Program-made: the position numbers and the translations under genes | Shown here: in pieces, positions 1,341-9,000 of the stretch | Numbering within the stretch: the stretch's first letter is position 1 | Layout: every line of letters starts with the position of its first letter | Assembly (NCBI GenBank): GCA_041674285.1 | Contig: JBAYVZ010000001.1 | Location: 10,167 to 74,166 of the forward strand | Direction of reading: 5' to 3' | Length of the DNA: 64,000 nt | From: Minisyncoccota bacterium | Lineage (GTDB): Bacteria > Patescibacteriota > Minisyncoccia > Phycocordibacterales > UBA9973 | The notes under the pieces: generated by a model | Database searches by the model: none | Told to the model about the DNA's origin: nothing | Seen by the model: the letters and a program-made list of their open reading frames with translations, nothing else

Positions 1341-1365
1341 ATCTTCCACAGGTCCGACCTGTGGA
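1341..1365. repeat. REP-like perfect palindrome cttccacaggtc-c-gacctgtggaag
   Basis: 12-bp arms that are exact reverse complements, GC-rich in an AT-rich context, immediately upstream of the RAYT gene. Confidence 0.8.
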
Positions 1366-1382
1366 AGACATGAAATTTATAT

Positions 1383-2087
1383 ATGTCAATAAGAAAAACA
1401 AATTTAGTATGCAATGAGTTTTATCATATATATAATCGTGGCAATGGTAAGAGTGCGATTTTTTTAGACGATGAAGATTACGATCGTTTTATTAAAATAT
1501 TATATATTTGTAATTCTGAGAATAATTTTAAATTCAGAGATTCAATTACTAGTCTTGGATTAGATGCTTTCGATTTTGAAAGGGGGAATACTCTTGTCGA
1601 TATTTTGGGTTGGGTTTTAATGCCGAATCATTTTCATCTAATTTTAATTTCCCACAGGTCCGACCGGTGGGAAAAAGATTATAATCCAATTACAGAATTT
1701 ATGCGAAAAGTCTCTACTTCATATGCTATGTATTTTAATAAAAAATATAAGCGCACAGGGTCTTTATTTGAAGGTAAATTTAAATCAAGTCACATTAATG
1801 AAGAGAATTATTTTAATTATATTTTTTCGTATGTACATTTAAATCCTATTAAATTAATACAAAAGGATTGGAAAGAAAATGGTATAAGAGATAAAAATAT
1901 AGCAATCAATTATTTAAAAACCTACAAATATTCTAGCTTCTTGGATTATTTTTCTGAGTACAGAAAACAAAGTAAGGTAATAAATAAAATTATATTACCG
2001 GAGCATCTAAAAATTAATCATACTAGAGAATTATTTGACTTTTTTAAGAATTATGTTCCCCACAGGTCGGACCTGTGGGGAAAGTAA
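1383..2087 (+). CDS. IS200/IS605-family Y1 (HUH) transposase of the REP-associated tyrosine transposase (RAYT) type
   Basis: YHIYNRGNGK N-terminal motif, HUH motif LMPNHFHLIL, C-terminal catalytic region KVSTSYAMYFNKKYKRTGSLFEGKFKSSHINEENYFNYIFSYVHLNPIK (RAYT-like GxLW...Y...NP layout). Flanked by REP-like palindromes. Confidence 0.7.
   Translation: MSIRKTNLVCNEFYHIYNRGNGKSAIFLDDEDYDRFIKILYICNSENNFKFRDSITSLGLDAFDFERGNTLVDILGWVLMPNHFHLILISHRSDRWEKDYNPITEFMRKVSTSYAMYFNKKYKRTGSLFEGKFKSSHINEENYFNYIFSYVHLNPIKLIQKDWKENGIRDKNIAINYLKTYKYSSFLDYFSEYRKQSKVINKIILPEHLKINHTRELFDFFKNYVPHRSDLWGK
1649..1675. repeat. REP-like palindrome (one-mismatch copy) inside the RAYT coding sequence
   Basis: ttcccacaggtccgaccggtgggaa has the same core as the flanking palindromes and encodes SHRSDRWEK in-frame between the HUH and Tyr regions. 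Confidence 0.7.
2056..2084. repeat. REP-like perfect palindrome ttccccacaggtc-g-gacctgtggggaa at the 3' end of the RAYT gene
   Basis: Exact 13-bp inverted arms; encodes the C-terminal PHRSDLWGK of the ORF. Confidence 0.8.
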
Positions 2088-2174: not shown

Positions 2175-3509
2175 ATGAAATTTGGTAATAAAAATTTTTA
2201 TATTGGTTTTATAAAAAAAACATTTATAGTTTTCGCTATATTGTTTTTCAGTGTGTCTTTTGCTGATTTCTCAAGTTCTAGTTTCAATCTCGAGAATCCT
2301 CTGAGTGTCACAGAAGGTGGCCAGGCTACTTCCAGTAGTTTTAAGTACTTTGGGTCTACTGGGCAATTGATAGTGGGAGAGAGTAGTAGTACAAATTTCA
2401 AGCAAAATTCTGGATTCATGTATTTCCCATTTGCGACTTCGCCTGTACTGACAGCTACTGCAGGGGATACTACCGTATCGTTATCTTGGACTGCAGCTTC
2501 GGGGGTTTTTGCAAATGTCACTAGCTATGAATTGGGTAGTAGTACTTCTGCTGATTCTGGTTTTGTGTACGTGTCTGTCGGTACTAGTACTTCATCTACA
2601 AAGAGCTCACTTACAAACGGTACGACTTATTATTTCAAGGTTAGATCTTATGCTGCTGGGATACTAGTCAGTGAATCATCTGTAGTCTCATCTACTCCAG
2701 CATCTTCGGATAATGGTGGTTCTGGTGGGGGTGGCGGAGGAGGGGGTGGTGGAAGCAGTAGTGGTGGTACCTCGAATAATGTTAAATTCTCCGGCAGAGC
2801 TTATCCTCGCAGTACTGTGGTGCTACTCAAGGATGCCCAAGTTTTAACTTCGACCCTAGCAGGCAATGATGCCAACTTCACTATAAACATCAATAGCATG
2901 AATGCTGGTAATTATATTTTCTCTGTGTATTCCGAGGATGACAAGGGCAATAGATCTTCACTCCTTACTTTCCCAGTGTCTATTACTGCAGGTGCCAGTA
3001 CCGATATAGGAGGTATATTCATAGCACCGACTATCGCTACAGATAAATCAGAGGTAAAGCAGGGTGACAATATAACTTTCTTTGGTCAGTCTACCCCAAA
3101 TAGTGAGATCACGATTTCTATTCATTCAGAGCAGGAATTATTCGAAAAAACTAATTCAGACAAGGATGGTATATATCTCCGGATGGTAGATTCATCTCCT
3201 TTGGAGGTAGGTAGTCACTCTGCAAAATCAAAATCAGCGATAAATGGAGAGATTAGTTCCTATAGTAAGCCTATAGATTTTGCTGTCAGTGATAAAAATA
3301 TTGAAAATGATTTACTGAAGAAATGCCCTGCAAAAGGAGATCTGAATAATGACTGTAAGGTTAACTTGATTGATTTCTCTATAGCAGCTTTTTGGAATAA
3401 AAAAACACTAACTCAGAGTATTTCTGATAAAGAAAAATTAAAGTTGAACGGAGATGGAAAAATAAATCTGATCGACTTTAGTATCATGGCTTATTATTGG
3501 ACTGGATAA
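2175..3509 (+). CDS. Secreted FN3-domain protein with Gly-rich linker and C-terminal type-I dockerin
   Basis: N-terminal hydrophobic signal/anchor and FN3-like block (TVSLSWTAASG...TTYYFKVRSYAAG). GGSGGGGGGGGGGSSSGG linker. Two dockerin Ca-binding repeats GDLNNDCKVNLIDFSIAAFW and LNGDGKINLIDFSIMAYYW (DxNxDGxVNxxD pattern). Confidence 0.65.
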   Translation: MKFGNKNFYIGFIKKTFIVFAILFFSVSFADFSSSSFNLENPLSVTEGGQATSSSFKYFGSTGQLIVGESSSTNFKQNSGFMYFPFATSPVLTATAGDTTVSLSWTAASGVFANVTSYELGSSTSADSGFVYVSVGTSTSSTKSSLTNGTTYYFKVRSYAAGILVSESSVVSSTPASSDNGGSGGGGGGGGGGSSSGGTSNNVKFSGRAYPRSTVVLLKDAQVLTSTLAGNDANFTININSMNAGNYIFSVYSEDDKGNRSSLLTFPVSITAGASTDIGGIFIAPTIATDKSEVKQGDNITFFGQSTPNSEITISIHSEQELFEKTNSDKDGIYLRMVDSSPLEVGSHSAKSKSAINGEISSYSKPIDFAVSDKNIENDLLKKCPAKGDLNNDCKVNLIDFSIAAFWNKKTLTQSISDKEKLKLNGDGKINLIDFSIMAYYWTG

Positions 3510-4435: not shown

Positions 4436-5950
4436 ATGTCTTTTAAAAATTTTTACAAAATAAATTTAAATAAAAAAATATTATTTTTATTTTTTATTTT
4501 TCTGTTTTCTTTTACTCAAAAAGTTTCTGCTGCAGAGTTAAACCTAATCCCATCTTTTTCTTCTTATGAAGTTGGGGATAATATTAAAGTCAGGGTTACA
4601 TTGTCTAGTTCGACTTCTGTGAATGCTGTGTCTGGAAATATAAAATTTTCTACAGACACTCTGACTATGACATCTGTTACCAAGGGGGGCTCAGTCGTTA
4701 GCTTGTGGGCAGTTGAACCTACATATTCAAATGCATCAGGTACTGTAAATTTTGAAGGTGTCATGCTCTCTGGATATACAGGTTCAGGTGGGACTGTATT
4801 GACTCTGAATTTCAAAGCTAAATCAGCGGGTACTGCATCAGCTAGCTTTTCTTCGTCTTCTGTTTTAGCTAGTGATGGAGAAGGTACAAATGTTTTGTCT
4901 AGATCCGGTAGTACGTCATTTAGGATTAATAAGCCGGCTGAAAAGAAAGTAGAAGAAAAACCAGCTGATAAAACTGATAAAAAAATAGAAACAAAGACTC
5001 TCTCTCCAAAAACTGAGACTACAGAGACTTCAAATACAAAAGTTGATTTAGTTTTGCCTACTATTCAAATACAAAAGATATCTGCAGATGATAGTATTGA
5101 TTCATTTGCTGTATTTAATGTGAACAGTGTGGGGAAGAAATTAAAATCACTATACAAGGTAGAAATCGATGGGGCACCTTATGCATGGGATAATCAGGAT
5201 GGTGGAGTATTTACTACACCTAAGTTGACAAAGGGGGATCACAGGTTGTCTATATCTATGGACACAGTTAACGGAGATATACTCTCAAGTAGTGTCGCTT
5301 TCTCTATCCTCAGTATCCCTGCACCTGTCATCACTGAATATTCTGAGAGTATAAATGAAAATAGTTATATAGTCATTAAAGGTAAGGCTGACCCGGATAC
5401 AGATGTTATATTGGTATTTGATTACAAATTATCAGACACTGGTGAATCTAAAAAATACGAAGCAGTAGCTCGATCAGATGAATATGGAAACTTCACTTAT
5501 TTGTCTGAAAAAGTTAAATCCGGATCTTATGATGTGTCAGCATATTACAAAGTAAAGAGTGGGTTTGATAGTGAAAAGAGTGCACCATTAAAATTGAATG
5601 TAAATTCAGAAAATAAAGTACTCCTATCAAAGGTTACAAATACTTTCTCTGTGGTTATATTGATTGTCGCACTCATTATATTGCTATTAATTGTTGCTAC
5701 TTGGGGGTGGTATAAGTTCCTAAATTACAAGGATAAGCACACAAAAAAGTTGTCCGACAGCAAGATAGTTATAGCAAAAAGTTTTGAGATTCTAGATAAT
5801 GATGTCGATAAACAGATCAAGATATTTAGAAAAATTAAATCTCTCGAGCCTTTGACCAAAGAAGAAAAAGCTTTCTTGAAAGAATTCAAGAGAGACATAC
5901 GGGCAGCAGAAAAAGTGATATCAGATGAAGTAAAGATTCCCAAGAAGTAA
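4436..5950 (+). CDS. Cohesin-like domain protein, membrane-anchored with charged cytoplasmic tail
   Basis: Signal peptide; cohesin-like pattern (NIKVRVTLSS...VSGNIKFSTDTLTMTS...GTVLTLNFKAKSAGTASASF). Second beta-rich domain, TM helix (VVILIVALIILLLIVATWGW), Lys/Glu-rich tail. Confidence 0.5.
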   Translation: MSFKNFYKINLNKKILFLFFIFLFSFTQKVSAAELNLIPSFSSYEVGDNIKVRVTLSSSTSVNAVSGNIKFSTDTLTMTSVTKGGSVVSLWAVEPTYSNASGTVNFEGVMLSGYTGSGGTVLTLNFKAKSAGTASASFSSSSVLASDGEGTNVLSRSGSTSFRINKPAEKKVEEKPADKTDKKIETKTLSPKTETTETSNTKVDLVLPTIQIQKISADDSIDSFAVFNVNSVGKKLKSLYKVEIDGAPYAWDNQDGGVFTTPKLTKGDHRLSISMDTVNGDILSSSVAFSILSIPAPVITEYSESINENSYIVIKGKADPDTDVILVFDYKLSDTGESKKYEAVARSDEYGNFTYLSEKVKSGSYDVSAYYKVKSGFDSEKSAPLKLNVNSENKVLLSKVTNTFSVVILIVALIILLLIVATWGWYKFLNYKDKHTKKLSDSKIVIAKSFEILDNDVDKQIKIFRKIKSLEPLTKEEKAFLKEFKRDIRAAEKVISDEVKIPKK

Positions 5951-6046: not shown

Positions 6047-9000
6047 ATGAAAAATTTTGGACATAAAATAATTTCTTTGATTCTTTTGGTTGTACTACTG
6101 ATAACAAGTGGTTTTTTTGTTGATAATATAAAAAAAGCAAAAGCATCTAATTCAAAAACAGTTACAGTTACTTTTCGTACCACTCCAACTACTGCAACCG
6201 TTGCAAAAGCTCCACTGAAATATAATAAGGATTTTGCTTTTAGTTTTCAGATGGATGATGGTAGTGCGGACAACTACGAGAATGGTTTCAAATATATGTA
6301 TGGAGGTACTAGTTCATTATTAGAAGAAAGTTATGGTGGTAAATATTTTACAGATGGATCTGGACGATCTACTGCACTAGCTAGTAAGCCATTTCGTGGT
6401 GACTTTGTTTGGAATTCTCGAAACTATAGTTCAAGTTTTGTAGAGCTACACGCAGCCCTAAATACTCTTACTTGGACAAAACTCCTTGATGCGAATACTG
6501 CAGGATTTGACGTATTGAACCACAGTTGGTCTCATGCTGCTGTGACTACACTAGGGGATAATTATGTTTATGATTATCCTGCGCCACAAGGTGCTACTAC
6601 TCTGGAATCTGGTGGTTATGAATATGAACTTAGTCAAAACGAAGACGAGGTGGCTAGTCACGGGGTGACTATGGCACCACTTGCTATGGTTCCTCCGGCA
6701 GGAGATCATGGATATATAGATCCTGCTTTTTCTACTGGTTACAAGCTCGTAGCCAGTGAGAGTTCGTCTTTTACTTACTCAGGTGGGACGGTTGCTGTAG
6801 ATACGGGTGGTATGAATGTGACTTCGAGTGTAGATTTGGACCATCTTTTTGCTTATCGATATTTTTATGAAGATAGTAGATTTACCCCAAACACCGCTAC
6901 GGCTATCACTACACCCATAGACACACTTGCATCTCGTAGTCGTGGGTCAGATAAATACTGGGCTATTGGTTTTACTCATAGGACGAGTGTGGTCTCTGGT
7001 GGCCTATCAGAATCAAATTATGAATCATTGATGGACCATATTGCTAGTACTTATGGCCGTGATGGGGATGATTCTATCTGGATGGCTCCAGCCGAAGAGG
7101 TGTATGACTATTTATCCACAAAGCAAAATACAACAGTCTCTACAAACACAGTAGGGAATGTTATGACTATTACACTCGACACATCATCTGTACCAGCGTT
7201 GCGACGCGAGGCTCTATCTCTGGTTGTATCTTCTGATGCCGAGATTGAATCTATCGCATATGCTCCCGGAGAATTTACTGCTACTAGTTCAAATATAAAT
7301 ACTGGTCTGATTAATATGGATTGGGGTACTGTATATACAGCCAATGATTTTACCCGTGTAGAAACATTAGTATCCGCTGCTGAATCTAGTCGTGCGCAGT
7401 CTGACATCGATATCGCTACTACTTATGTCGCTATGTTGCCAGCAAGTGTTGAGAAAAATAATTTTACTAGTAGGTTAAATAATATTGTTGTTTTAGGTCA
7501 GCGATGGTTGATCAATCTGGGTATCAATAGTGCAGGCAAATTACAAGACACAGTAGTGGGTAGTGAGACAGAGAATCTTTGGTGGAATGAGATAAATTTA
7601 GTTTCCAATACTGGTTCAAATCAGACATCACCCATACTAGTAGACACTGCAAATGTAAATACTAGTCTTACTGTAGTTTTACCTCAATCTACTACTACAA
7701 ATTCTTGGGTAAAACCAGGAGCGGGTAGTGAGGGTCAGACTACTGTCACAGACGGTGATGGGGCTTATCCAAATGCTAAAATGCAAAAAGGTCTTTATAT
7801 CAGTAACGCAACAGAAACTTCACCTGTTGTTCAGATTCATAATCTTGACCCTGTAAAGAAATATAAGGTCACAATTTTTGGTTCTACAAAAAATTTAAAT
7901 AGCGGAAAAACTACGTCAAATATTGCAGTTCAGGGTGTATCTCAGGGTCCGTATCAGCATTATAATAATACAAGTAATACTTTAATATTTAGTTCCGTTT
8001 CTCCTACTGTTAGTGGGGTTATAGAGATTGTTATGACTCCTGTGAATCCAGCTTGGAGCGTGACTCCTATAAATGTCATCGATATCAGTGAGGTCACTCC
8101 TGCATTGCCAACTATAACTTTTAATTCTCAATCTCTACGCAGTCAGATTAGTGGGCTTGTTGATTACGGATATACTATTACTGATGACAATAGTGATCCT
8201 ATTTCCCTTATGAGCTATCAATACTCTGCCACCGGTGCATTTAATGGCGAGGAAGCGACTGCTACTCCAAAATCAAGCGACGGTCTTCATGATGGAATTT
8301 CTTCTTTGACTTCTTCTCCTGCGGGTGTTGCTCATGATTTCGTATGGGATGCTATTACTGATTTACTTGGACAAGAGGGAACTTTTTATCTAAGACTCCG
8401 ACCACAGAATCTATCCTCTGATGGGTCATATTCAATTGCTACTCCAGTCGCTCTCGATTTCAAGAACCCCGTACAGACTAGTATCGGCGCTACGACAACT
8501 TCATCTACTGCAAGTATCACTTGGACTACCCAAGAGATCGCGTATGGATTGGTGGAGTATGGTACTACGGATTCATATGGATCAAGTGTAGGATCCTTGT
8601 CATCTGGTACAGCGGTATTGAGTCATGATTTTGATTTGACTGGATTAGATGCTTGTACTACTTATCACTACCGTGTGTCTTCTCGAGATAGTGTGGGTAA
8701 CAATACCGTATCATCTGATCAGACGATGCATACAGCTGGATGCCCTGATCCTGTAGCTAGTCCTGTGGCTGGATTGTATAATGCGACTCAATCAGTGACA
8801 CTATCTGCTACTGGATCTTCTTCTATTCGCTATTCGACAACTAGTACCCCAGCTGATTGTTCTGCTGGTACTCTGTATAGTGGCGCGATATCTGTAGCAT
8901 CAGATACTACTATATATGTACGTGCTTGTGATATTTCAAACAATTCAACTACTGGTAGTTTCCTCTATACTATAGATTCCGAAGCCCCATCTACACCAGC

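Follow-up and report, generated by a model that had tools for sequence, protein, structure and literature searches.

A probable REP/RAYT unit of Patescibacteria with one of its palindromes inside the transposase gene

A stretch of 64,000 nucleotides (nt) from a Minisyncoccota bacterium (assembly GCA_041674285.1, contig JBAYVZ010000001.1, positions 10,167 to 74,166; hereafter the window) carries a gene for a transposase of the RAYT type (REP-associated tyrosine transposase, where REP denotes a repetitive extragenic palindrome), together with three copies of a short GC-rich palindrome, one in front of the gene, one at its end and one in the middle of its coding sequence. The locus is probably a REP/RAYT unit, or REPtron, of Patescibacteria, in which some process that depends on the RAYT would keep the hairpins alike, the one within the gene among them. 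The assignment of the gene and the palindromes to the REP/RAYT systems is the firmest part of this reading and is made with high confidence, while the proposal that the RAYT itself drives the homogenisation of the hairpins, a process read from their patterns of identity, has an even chance of being right.

The locus and its three palindromes

The sequence CCACAGGTCnGACCTGTGG is found in three copies around and inside the open reading frame (ORF) at 1383-2087. The features of the locus are as follows.

1342-1368, no strand: upstream REP-like palindrome, TCTTCCACAGGTCCGACCTGTGGAAGA, perfect, with arms of 13 base pairs (bp) and a 1-nt centre C
1383-2087, + strand: gene of a RAYT-like Y1 HUH transposase, 234 amino acids (aa)
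1629-1637, + strand: HUH motif His83-Phe84-His85 in MPNHFH, assigned from conservation in homologues and from its place on model strand 83-89
1648-1674, no strand: internal REP-like palindrome, TTTCCCACAGGTCCGACCGGTGGGAAA, in frame, encoding S90-K98 (SHRSDRWEK), with one arm mismatch at 1666
1830-1832, + strand: presumed catalytic Tyr150 in S-Y-V-H-L-N-P, assigned from conservation, a putative nucleophile
2056-2082, no strand: downstream REP-like palindrome, TTCCCCACAGGTCGGACCTGTGGGGAA, perfect, with 13-bp arms and centre G

With up to two mismatches allowed, the 17-nt core CACAGGTCnGACCTGTG occurs exactly three times in the 64 kb, each time at the RAYT locus. The chance expectation from 100 shuffles was 0.01 copies, and no shuffle contained three or more; a chance hairpin was rejected on this ground. 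As single-stranded DNA (ssDNA), the upstream, internal and downstream copies fold with energies of -12.8, -10.2 and -13.7 kcal/mol (z-scores of -7.0, -4.5 and -5.9). The other GC-rich hairpins of the window are unrelated, one-off and terminator-like.

The upstream palindrome begins 4 nt past the stop codon of the gene in front, and 14 nt separate its end from the ATG of the RAYT gene; the downstream one forms the last nine codons of the gene (PHRSDLWGK), with the stop codon at 2085-2087. The original prediction had placed all three palindromes within 1-3 nt of these coordinates, and the peptides that it had read from them, SHRSDRWEK over the internal copy and PHRSDLWGK at the end, were confirmed by translation: the protein runs NHFHLIL-ISHRSDRWEK across the internal copy and ends in ...VPHRSDLWGK* over the 3' copy. 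The mismatch at 1666 is a T-to-G change of the window, which breaks one internal base pair and turns the Leu of the family into Arg (HRSDRW for HRSDLW). A protein 96% identical to the window RAYT (P0001) has the intact internal version (HRSDLW).

The transposase

A RAYT-type Y1 transposase had been proposed for this gene from its letters, and profile, motif and fold agree with that proposal. The protein matches the NCBIfam model NF047646 (REP_Tyr_transpos) with an E value of 1.2e-12 and 47.9 bits against a cut-off of 80, a score that indicates a homologue rather than an equivalog. With Pfam Y1_Tnp (PF01797) it reaches 18.3 bits, below the cut-off of 23 (E 0.0026). The profile check that had been suggested thus gave a significant NCBIfam E value and scores below the cut-offs of both Pfam and NCBIfam; several close homologues carry a precomputed PF01797 hit. 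More than 7,600 homologue matches were found among clusters at 90% identity, the best 120 being 60-96% identical and named at their source as transposase or RayT of Nomurabacteria, Paceibacterota or Patescibacteria, and 13,413 clusters at 50% identity match at E of 1e-3 or below. In the 120 homologues H83, H85 and Y150 are invariant, and H152, N154 and P155 are invariant or nearly so. Tyr150 is taken to be the nucleophile from the Y-x-H-x-N-P motif of RAYTs.

An AlphaFold model built from the alignment of the 120 homologues (mean predicted local distance difference test, pLDDT, 79.6; predicted template modelling score, pTM, 0.82) places Tyr150 on helix 141-158 and His83 and His85 on strand 83-89. 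Besides the N-terminus, the only parts of low confidence (pLDDT below 50) are residues 93-97 and 227-234, which are the stretches encoded by the internal and the 3' palindrome, and the residues of the internal palindrome lie in the loop that links the HUH strand 83-89 to helix 102-121. When the model was compared with the PDB by Foldseek, the top 16 matches were all RAYT or IS200/IS605 transposases with a probability of 1.00. The best was 4er8_A, the E. coli RAYT with a REP hairpin (E 1e-6; template modelling score 0.57, target-normalised), followed by the TnpA structures of ISDra2, IS608 and IS200. At the sequence level, neither the protein nor the profile A1 found a useful match in the PDB. 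In an hhalign comparison of A1 with E. coli RayT, similarity was confined to 35 columns around the HUH motif (E 1.9e-4), an alignment too short for the insertion to be mapped onto 4ER8 by sequence. Unlike E. coli RayT, which has 165 aa, the proteins here have about 225 aa and an extra C-terminal helical part. Taken together, an identity as a RAYT-type Y1 HUH transposase is supported.

An old, clade-wide gain of the internal copy

The middle palindrome had been suspected of being an insertion relative to related proteins, and an alignment with metagenomic relatives, 80 in number, bears this out. In relatives of about 41-56% identity the loop is short (HLLV-KEKTENG-ISKFMQK) and has no palindrome, and a second group has 7 aa (21 nt) more at the loop, where a GC-rich palindrome lies. 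In a neighbour-joining (NJ) tree of 78 full-length genes, midpoint-rooted and without support values, a single split separates 40 hairpin-bearing tips from 38 hairpin-less ones. Of the 40 clade members, whose divergence reaches about 50% identity, 36 have an intact internal hairpin. Since the tree has this one split and the loop of E. coli RayT is also short, a single in-frame gain of the internal copy would be the simplest history.

The gain is not recent, because the peptide S-H-R-S-D-L-W-E (HRSDLWE) is almost invariant among close orthologues. A recent insertion of the internal copy was rejected, as all close orthologues carry it. Four members of the clade (L009, L012, L028 and L032) keep the extra loop residues and an intact ORF around an eroded palindrome; in L028 the flanks have switched to the CACAGGTC type, and the eroded internal relic resembles the CACCAGTC type of its sister L011. 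In a further RAYT homologue (L073:3000-3070) the left foot of the internal palindrome carries a duplication of 10 nt (TTTCACATAG TTTCACATAGG...) that shifts the frame and breaks the gene; it may be a scar of activity at the hairpin.

Conservation of the palindrome in DNA and its concerted change

The internal palindrome is lineage-specific, examples being CCCACAGGTCnGACCTGTGGG, CGCATAGGTCAGACCTATGCG, CCCCTAGGTCCGACCTAGGGG, CCCACCAGTCCGACTGGTGGG, GCGGAAGCAAGGCTTCCGC, ACGAACGCCTGGCGTTCGT and CCCCTTCTCCGGGAGAAGGGG; the palindrome types of L007 and L026 are CCCTAGGTC and GCGGAAGC. Across the lineages the internal copy is read in frames 0, 1 and 2, and the same GCGGAAGCAAGGCTTCCGC is translated as AEARLPQ in one lineage and as PRKQGFR in another. 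Conservation at the peptide level was rejected, given three frames and different peptides; to judge from these sequences, the conserved entity is the DNA palindrome and not the peptide.

Pairing was counted over 12 pairs in 35 centre-anchored internal hairpins. Changes on both sides were found at 11 of the 12 pairs, and 88% of the cells were paired, a percentage that is inflated because the hairpin centres (A2) were picked by maximal pairing. The cells changed on both sides numbered 99, against 28 +/- 4 in shuffles, and the covariation score was 0.63, against 0.18 when shuffled and at most 0.14 with slid partners. The signal is real despite the choice of centres, as the scores are bimodal (10-17 versus 9 or less) and the internal copies match the flanks independently. 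G-U pairs were rare and no commoner than other mismatches, so that a palindrome pairing on both DNA strands fits better than a structure formed in RNA only.

A matching, lineage-specific pair of palindromes flanks the RAYT gene throughout the family, in nearly all of the 78 and in the hairpin-less relatives as well. The upstream palindrome lies about 10-135 nt before the start codon in nearly all relatives, and the centre of the downstream one falls between -41 and +44 nt from the stop codon; because this position varies around the stop, the palindrome-coded C-terminal tail appears to be a by-product. The internal 17-mer differs by 0-1 mismatch from its own upstream flank in 30 of 37 loci and from its own downstream flank in 31 of 37, whereas its mean distance from the cores of other lineages is 6.5 mismatches. 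Near-identity of three local copies combined with turnover between lineages is the pattern of concerted evolution. Protein distance and hairpin distance were correlated weakly and significantly (rho 0.21, reached by 4 of 2000 permutations); the weakness of the correlation implies that the hairpin type turns over faster than the protein, and the type is not a simple phylogenetic marker.

It might be supposed that the hairpins act only as RNA, as terminators, protectors of mRNA ends or translational attenuators unrelated to the transposase. REPs do stabilise mRNA in E. coli, and many of the stand-alone copies described below lie after genes and are flanked by A- and T-runs in the manner of bidirectional terminators. 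Such functions, however, need a structure and not three identical sequences with lineage-specific turnover; they would not leave G-U pairs unfavoured, and the link of the hairpins to the RAYT gene family holds family-wide. Furthermore, no T-tail follows any of the three hairpins of the window on the + strand; a search for intrinsic terminators at them gave none on the + strand and weak - strand matches at hairpins 1 and 3 only, and no Rfam family matches them. An RNA-only role is therefore considered highly improbable.

Genomic context of the gene

Identical RAYT proteins always occur in one genomic context. For one protein (P0118) this context is pheT-gyrB-x-RAYT-DUF4406-thrS in 21 contigs, and for another (P0065) it is macB/ftsX-RAYT-x-secE-nusG-rplK in 7 contigs. 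Diverged RAYT loci also have housekeeping neighbours in common, and one shared-neighbour group (L003, L007, L025 and L055) mixes hairpin-bearing with hairpin-less members. Multiple near-identical copies of the whole element at different sites were not found among these loci, where each protein has a single context. A single-copy, vertically inherited gene is the pattern described for RAYTs (Bertels et al. 2017, PMC5581495), and the context pattern is that of a RAYT and not of an active IS200. The gene thus looks domesticated, a single copy inherited vertically in a fixed context, to the extent that gene order reveals it. The original prediction had offered either a domesticated RAYT or a REP inserted into its own gene; both descriptions hold, and hold together, with the qualification that the insertion is ancient and clade-wide instead of recent.

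These data also bear on the idea that hairpin, gene and hairpin form an active insertion sequence (IS) of the IS200/IS605 type, with the flanking palindromes as end hairpins on the left and the right and an internal copy that is incidental. The fold and motifs are common to the TnpA proteins of IS200/IS605, and a unit of about 740 bp with sub-terminal hairpins at both ends has the expected shape. Against it, the window holds one RAYT copy, identical proteins keep to one context, and neighbours are conserved across diverged loci. The homologues form a continuum of 60-79% identity and not a set of near-identical copies, most palindrome copies lie alone and far from transposase genes, and the best structural match is a RAYT and not an IS transposase. 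An active IS is accordingly very hard to credit.

In the window itself, the neighbours of the RAYT gene are of surface type: a protein with a Peptidase_S74 (endosialidase chaperone) domain and a repeat tail rich in Pro, Glu and Thr (54-1337), a dockerin, fn3 and Big_6 protein (2175-3509) and a cohesin-domain protein (4436-5950), the latter two being a cohesin-dockerin pair in a genome resembling the candidate phyla radiation (CPR). These surface-type neighbours were found at no related RAYT locus compared.

Dispersed copies in related genomes

The original prediction had proposed a genome-wide search for the palindrome. Within the window this returned only the three local copies, and dispersal became visible in relatives. 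A scan for CCACAGGTCnGACCTGTGG with one genome per species gave at least 80 stretches, and the figures that follow are among the matches listed. About 60 of the stretches are low-GC contigs of metagenome-assembled genomes (MAGs) of Patescibacteria; the remainder are high-GC genomes or Exiguobacterium terminators and are consistent with chance. Only 8 of the stretches have a RAYT homologue, and 6 have the triplet form; in L110 and L155 a distant RAYT homologue lies more than 2 kb from the palindrome. Several contigs of one MAG may be hit, with 5 loci each in MFUM01 (among them L094, L106, L126 and L149) and DAOQRR01 and 3 each in JAVHOH01, DAOSXI01, CAYHBT01, CAZRTW01 and JAGOUR01. Copies that match family-wide at the flanks of RAYT genes and are also dispersed away from them in related genomes are what REP-like partners should be, as had been surmised.

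The dispersed copies are singlets or doublets spaced by 24 or 41 nt, and most doublets are inverted as judged by the centre base, which makes them similar to REPINs (REP doublets forming hairpins). In 102 oriented copies the conserved unit is a symmetric 19-mer only. Past the 8-bp arms, at least 2, 3, 4 and 5 complementary positions were found in 73%, 55%, 44% and 31% of these copies; this outward complementarity with variable sequence exceeds chance and fits a stem rather than a half-site read by a protein.

The last observation is relevant to another explanation, in which the palindromes are duplex operator sites for a homodimeric protein, the RAYT or another, and no hairpin is formed. Half-sites would then co-vary because both monomers read the same sequence, and perfect palindromes with a 1-nt centre and strictly Watson-Crick pairing with few G-T pairs are what a symmetric duplex site would give. 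Complementarity that runs past the 19-nt core above chance is not expected of such a site; nor are copies in essential genes and at gene ends in terminator-like settings, and the closest solved relative of the adjacent gene's product is bound to a DNA hairpin. Operator sites seem quite improbable on balance.

Several side observations concern the dispersed copies. Doublets spaced by 24 nt occur at L094:4556-4596 and 7491-7531, L106:931-971, L110:5192-5232, L113:1058-1098 and L139:2387-2427; they are mostly inverted, with one CATAGG variant arm, and in L109, L110 and L139 doublets stand at apparently the same intergenic position, after a gene ending in ..GLERMM*. At some loci a RAYT paralogue that is more distant, or a palindrome of another type (GGCGGAGGCGTTGCCTCCGTC), was seen in addition (L127:7494-7961; L063:186-629 / 1518-2189; L138, downstream of the RAYT on the reverse strand), which implies that several REP/RAYT families can coexist in one genome. 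Four low-GC contigs (L084, L128, L140 and L143) bear the labels Rhizobiaceae, Bacteroidetes, Planctomycetota and Christensenella; their true source is probably the CPR and the binning wrong, because the context of the palindrome is the same as in Paceibacterota contigs (e.g. L084, L092, L140). In Exiguobacterium (L120, L144, L150 and L156) the identical 19-mer is the stem of a conserved terminator-like hairpin (aaaaaaccatcCACAGGTCGGACCTGTGgatggttttt), for which chance or an unrelated origin is assumed. The palindrome does not occur in 2.9 million viral contigs, where the relatives of the RAYT are only 28% identical, and a phage origin was rejected on this evidence.

Copies inside housekeeping genes

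Some of the stand-alone copies lie in frame within genes for a Pif1-like helicase, PheT, UvrA (as a doublet) and a Mur ligase in MAGs of Patescibacteria.

L090:5803-5819, and L083, L085, L100, L116, L159: copies in the Pif1-like helicase, six MAGs, read PQVRPVG
L117:4047-4063 and L107:2397-2413: copies in PheT
L134:6992-7049: doublet in UvrA
L093:6047-6063: copy in a Mur ligase

At the orthologous Pif1 site the palindrome is CCACAGGTCAGACCTGTGG, CCCACATGTCGGACATGTGGG, GCGGAAGCAAGGCTTTCGC or GCGGAAGTCGGACTTCCGC, depending on the genome. At the DNA level the site reads CCACAGGTCAGACCTGTGG in L090, TTTCCCACATGTCGGACATGTGGGAAA in L161, TTGCGGAAGCAAGGCTTTCGCGAA in L162 and TTGCGGAAGTCGGACTTCCGC in L163, each a perfect or near-perfect palindrome at the following place.

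L090, about 5800: Pif1-site palindrome
L161:10466-10502: Pif1-site palindrome
L162:9260-9278: Pif1-site palindrome
L163:10476-10498: Pif1-site palindrome

The palindrome types of the Pif1 site also occur at RAYT loci of other lineages. Among 120 Pif1 orthologues, the loop peptide is PQV[RG]PVG, PHV[RG]HVG, AEARLS[RQ], AEVGLP.. or a native-looking [DEN]xK[NS][LS]G, and in many of them a native-looking loop is just as long as the palindrome-coded one. Palindrome-derived peptides are seen in about a third of the 120 orthologues (68-96% identity), a rough figure taken from peptides only. In PheT, the palindrome-coded SHR[LS]DLWE stands in place of VENSGKFT or TEKNGEYE with the length unchanged, as seen from a comparison of L117:3854-4243 with L002:497-880 and L115:6127-6510. 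In both PheT and Pif1 the event looks like a length-preserving replacement rather than an insertion, judging by the aligned sequences.

How the hairpins may be kept alike

Enzymes of the RAYT kind bind and cut short hairpins in ssDNA. By analogy with the E. coli RayT in 4ER8, the RAYT described here would bind and cut its cognate hairpins in ssDNA, the cognate hairpin being a GC-rich, nearly perfect palindrome of 19-27 nt placed just before the start and at the stop codon. A third copy would have been inserted once, in frame, in one large clade, adding 21 nt (7 aa) to a surface loop, and kept since. All copies of a genome, the one within the RAYT gene included, would be substrates of the resident RAYT, and its activity at the hairpins would keep them alike, probably by cleavage and strand exchange (copying) between them. 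Copying seems likelier than point mutation with selection, because a switch of type needs coordinated double changes in three places. Copies near the RAYT gene would be best maintained, since transposases tend to act in cis. For the internal copy, a REP that is tolerated in a permissive loop and kept fresh there is the most likely reading; through it the enzyme may also bind or cleave its own gene, which would allow self-limitation.

A selected role for the internal copy is the more serious competitor, if a rather doubtful one. It holds that the internal hairpin is a cis-regulatory element that limits the expression or integrity of the transposase, and that the copies stay identical through selection for the same binder. 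In its favour, 36 of the 40 clade members have kept the internal copy intact, compared with palindrome peptides in about one third of the Pif1 orthologues (a comparison that for Pif1 is one of peptides only). Between the upstream copy, 14 nt from the start, and the start codon no sigma-70-like promoter was found, so that this hairpin is probably in the 5' leader; leader hairpins are used by IS200 to damp expression. However, point mutation with selection would by itself hardly yield coordinated changes of both arms in three separate copies, the same turnover of types affects dispersed and in-gene copies with no link to RAYT expression, and the four clade members without the internal hairpin retain an intact ORF. 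The better upkeep of the internal copy is explained equally well by a cis preference of the enzyme.

Several points weigh against a REP/RAYT unit with hairpins homogenised by its enzyme. The binding and cutting of these hairpins by the RAYT is inferred, and the single protein of the window misses both curated cut-offs, those of Pfam and NCBIfam. The window contains no further copy of the palindrome, and the density of copies seems low, with 0 in its other 62 kb. A GTAG/GTGG guide tetranucleotide or an asymmetric flank was absent from the 102 oriented copies, and because both are missing it is hard to explain how a Y1 enzyme would choose its cleavage site. Agreement between the RAYT type and the type of the dispersed copies within one genome was seen only for the CACAGGTC type. 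Concerted evolution could alternatively come from selection for a common binding partner and not from copying, and we know of no Y1 mechanism that explains the length-preserving replacement in PheT and Pif1. To these are added the choice of hairpin centres and the unsupported, midpoint-rooted tree mentioned above.

A bolder proposal, put forward as speculation and thought unlikely as it stands, is that RAYTs rewrite hairpins in place, every copy receiving the sequence of the current master at intervals. This would come about by a strand exchange that is aimed at hairpins and preserves their length, and it would also act in essential genes and in the RAYT gene itself. If this were true, the enzyme would be a substrate of its own activity, with self-limitation and an obligatory co-evolution of enzyme and site as consequences, and a Y1 HUH enzyme would perform a natural, sequence-programmable replacement of local DNA that goes beyond the cut-and-paste of REPs.

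Relation to known systems

The system resembles the REPtrons, or REPIN-RAYT systems, of Proteobacteria (E. coli RayT/YafM, 4ER8; Pseudomonas) in its Y1 HUH fold with 4ER8 as the best match, in a single-copy gene of fixed context with a cognate GC-rich palindrome on both sides, in singlets and inverted doublets of that palindrome scattered over related genomes, and in the possibility of several palindrome and RAYT types per genome (L127, L138). It differs in its host, a member of Patescibacteria; no paper on REP/RAYT in this phylum was found, and a search for 'RAYT' with 'Patescibacteria' gave unrelated papers. Unlike classical REPs, the palindromes are perfect, symmetric, very short and without a GTAG/GTGG tag. 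The third copy in the middle of the ORF, conserved in a clade and co-evolving with the flanks, has no counterpart in the REPtron literature found.

Flanking REP copies that overlap the ends of the RAYT ORF are already known, as are intragenic REPs in uvrA, uvrD, recBCD, polA, dnaE and tRNA synthetase genes (PMC3733652). Like these and the Rickettsia palindromic elements (RPEs), the copies in UvrA, Pif1, PheT and Mur ligase are in-frame palindromic repeats in functional genes. The elements here measure 19-27 nt, unlike RPE-1 with roughly 100-150 bp. They further differ from RPEs and intragenic REPs in that one host gene is that of their own presumed transposase, that the sequence differs at orthologous sites, and that native residues are replaced without a change of length. 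With IS200/IS605 elements (IS200, IS608, ISDra2) the catalytic fold, the motifs and hairpins beside both gene ends are held in common, and IS200 has a hairpin in its 5' leader, a likeness to the upstream copy of the window; unlike these elements, there is no sign of multicopy gene mobility, the hairpins spread on their own, and the left and right hairpins are identical perfect palindromes. The known cases of REPs overlapping ORF ends or lying within genes temper the novelty; what is new is the host phylum, the short, symmetric palindrome without a tag, the conserved mid-ORF copy and the turnover of types at orthologous sites within genes.

Significance

How REPs spread and remain uniform within a genome is still poorly understood, according to PMC8266576. 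The family described here offers dozens of natural cognate pairs, each consisting of one RAYT and its own palindrome three times over in a unit of 740 bp; since one or a few compensated base pairs separate one such pair from another, a recognition code could be tested with short oligonucleotides. An intact REP within a transposase ORF and differing REPs at one helicase site argue for renewal of hairpins in place, which would run counter to the usual picture of insertion followed by decay. In conclusion, the range of REP/RAYT systems would come to include Patescibacteria, whose genomes are streamlined and are believed to contain little selfish DNA, and 'extragenic' palindromes can reside inside essential proteins.

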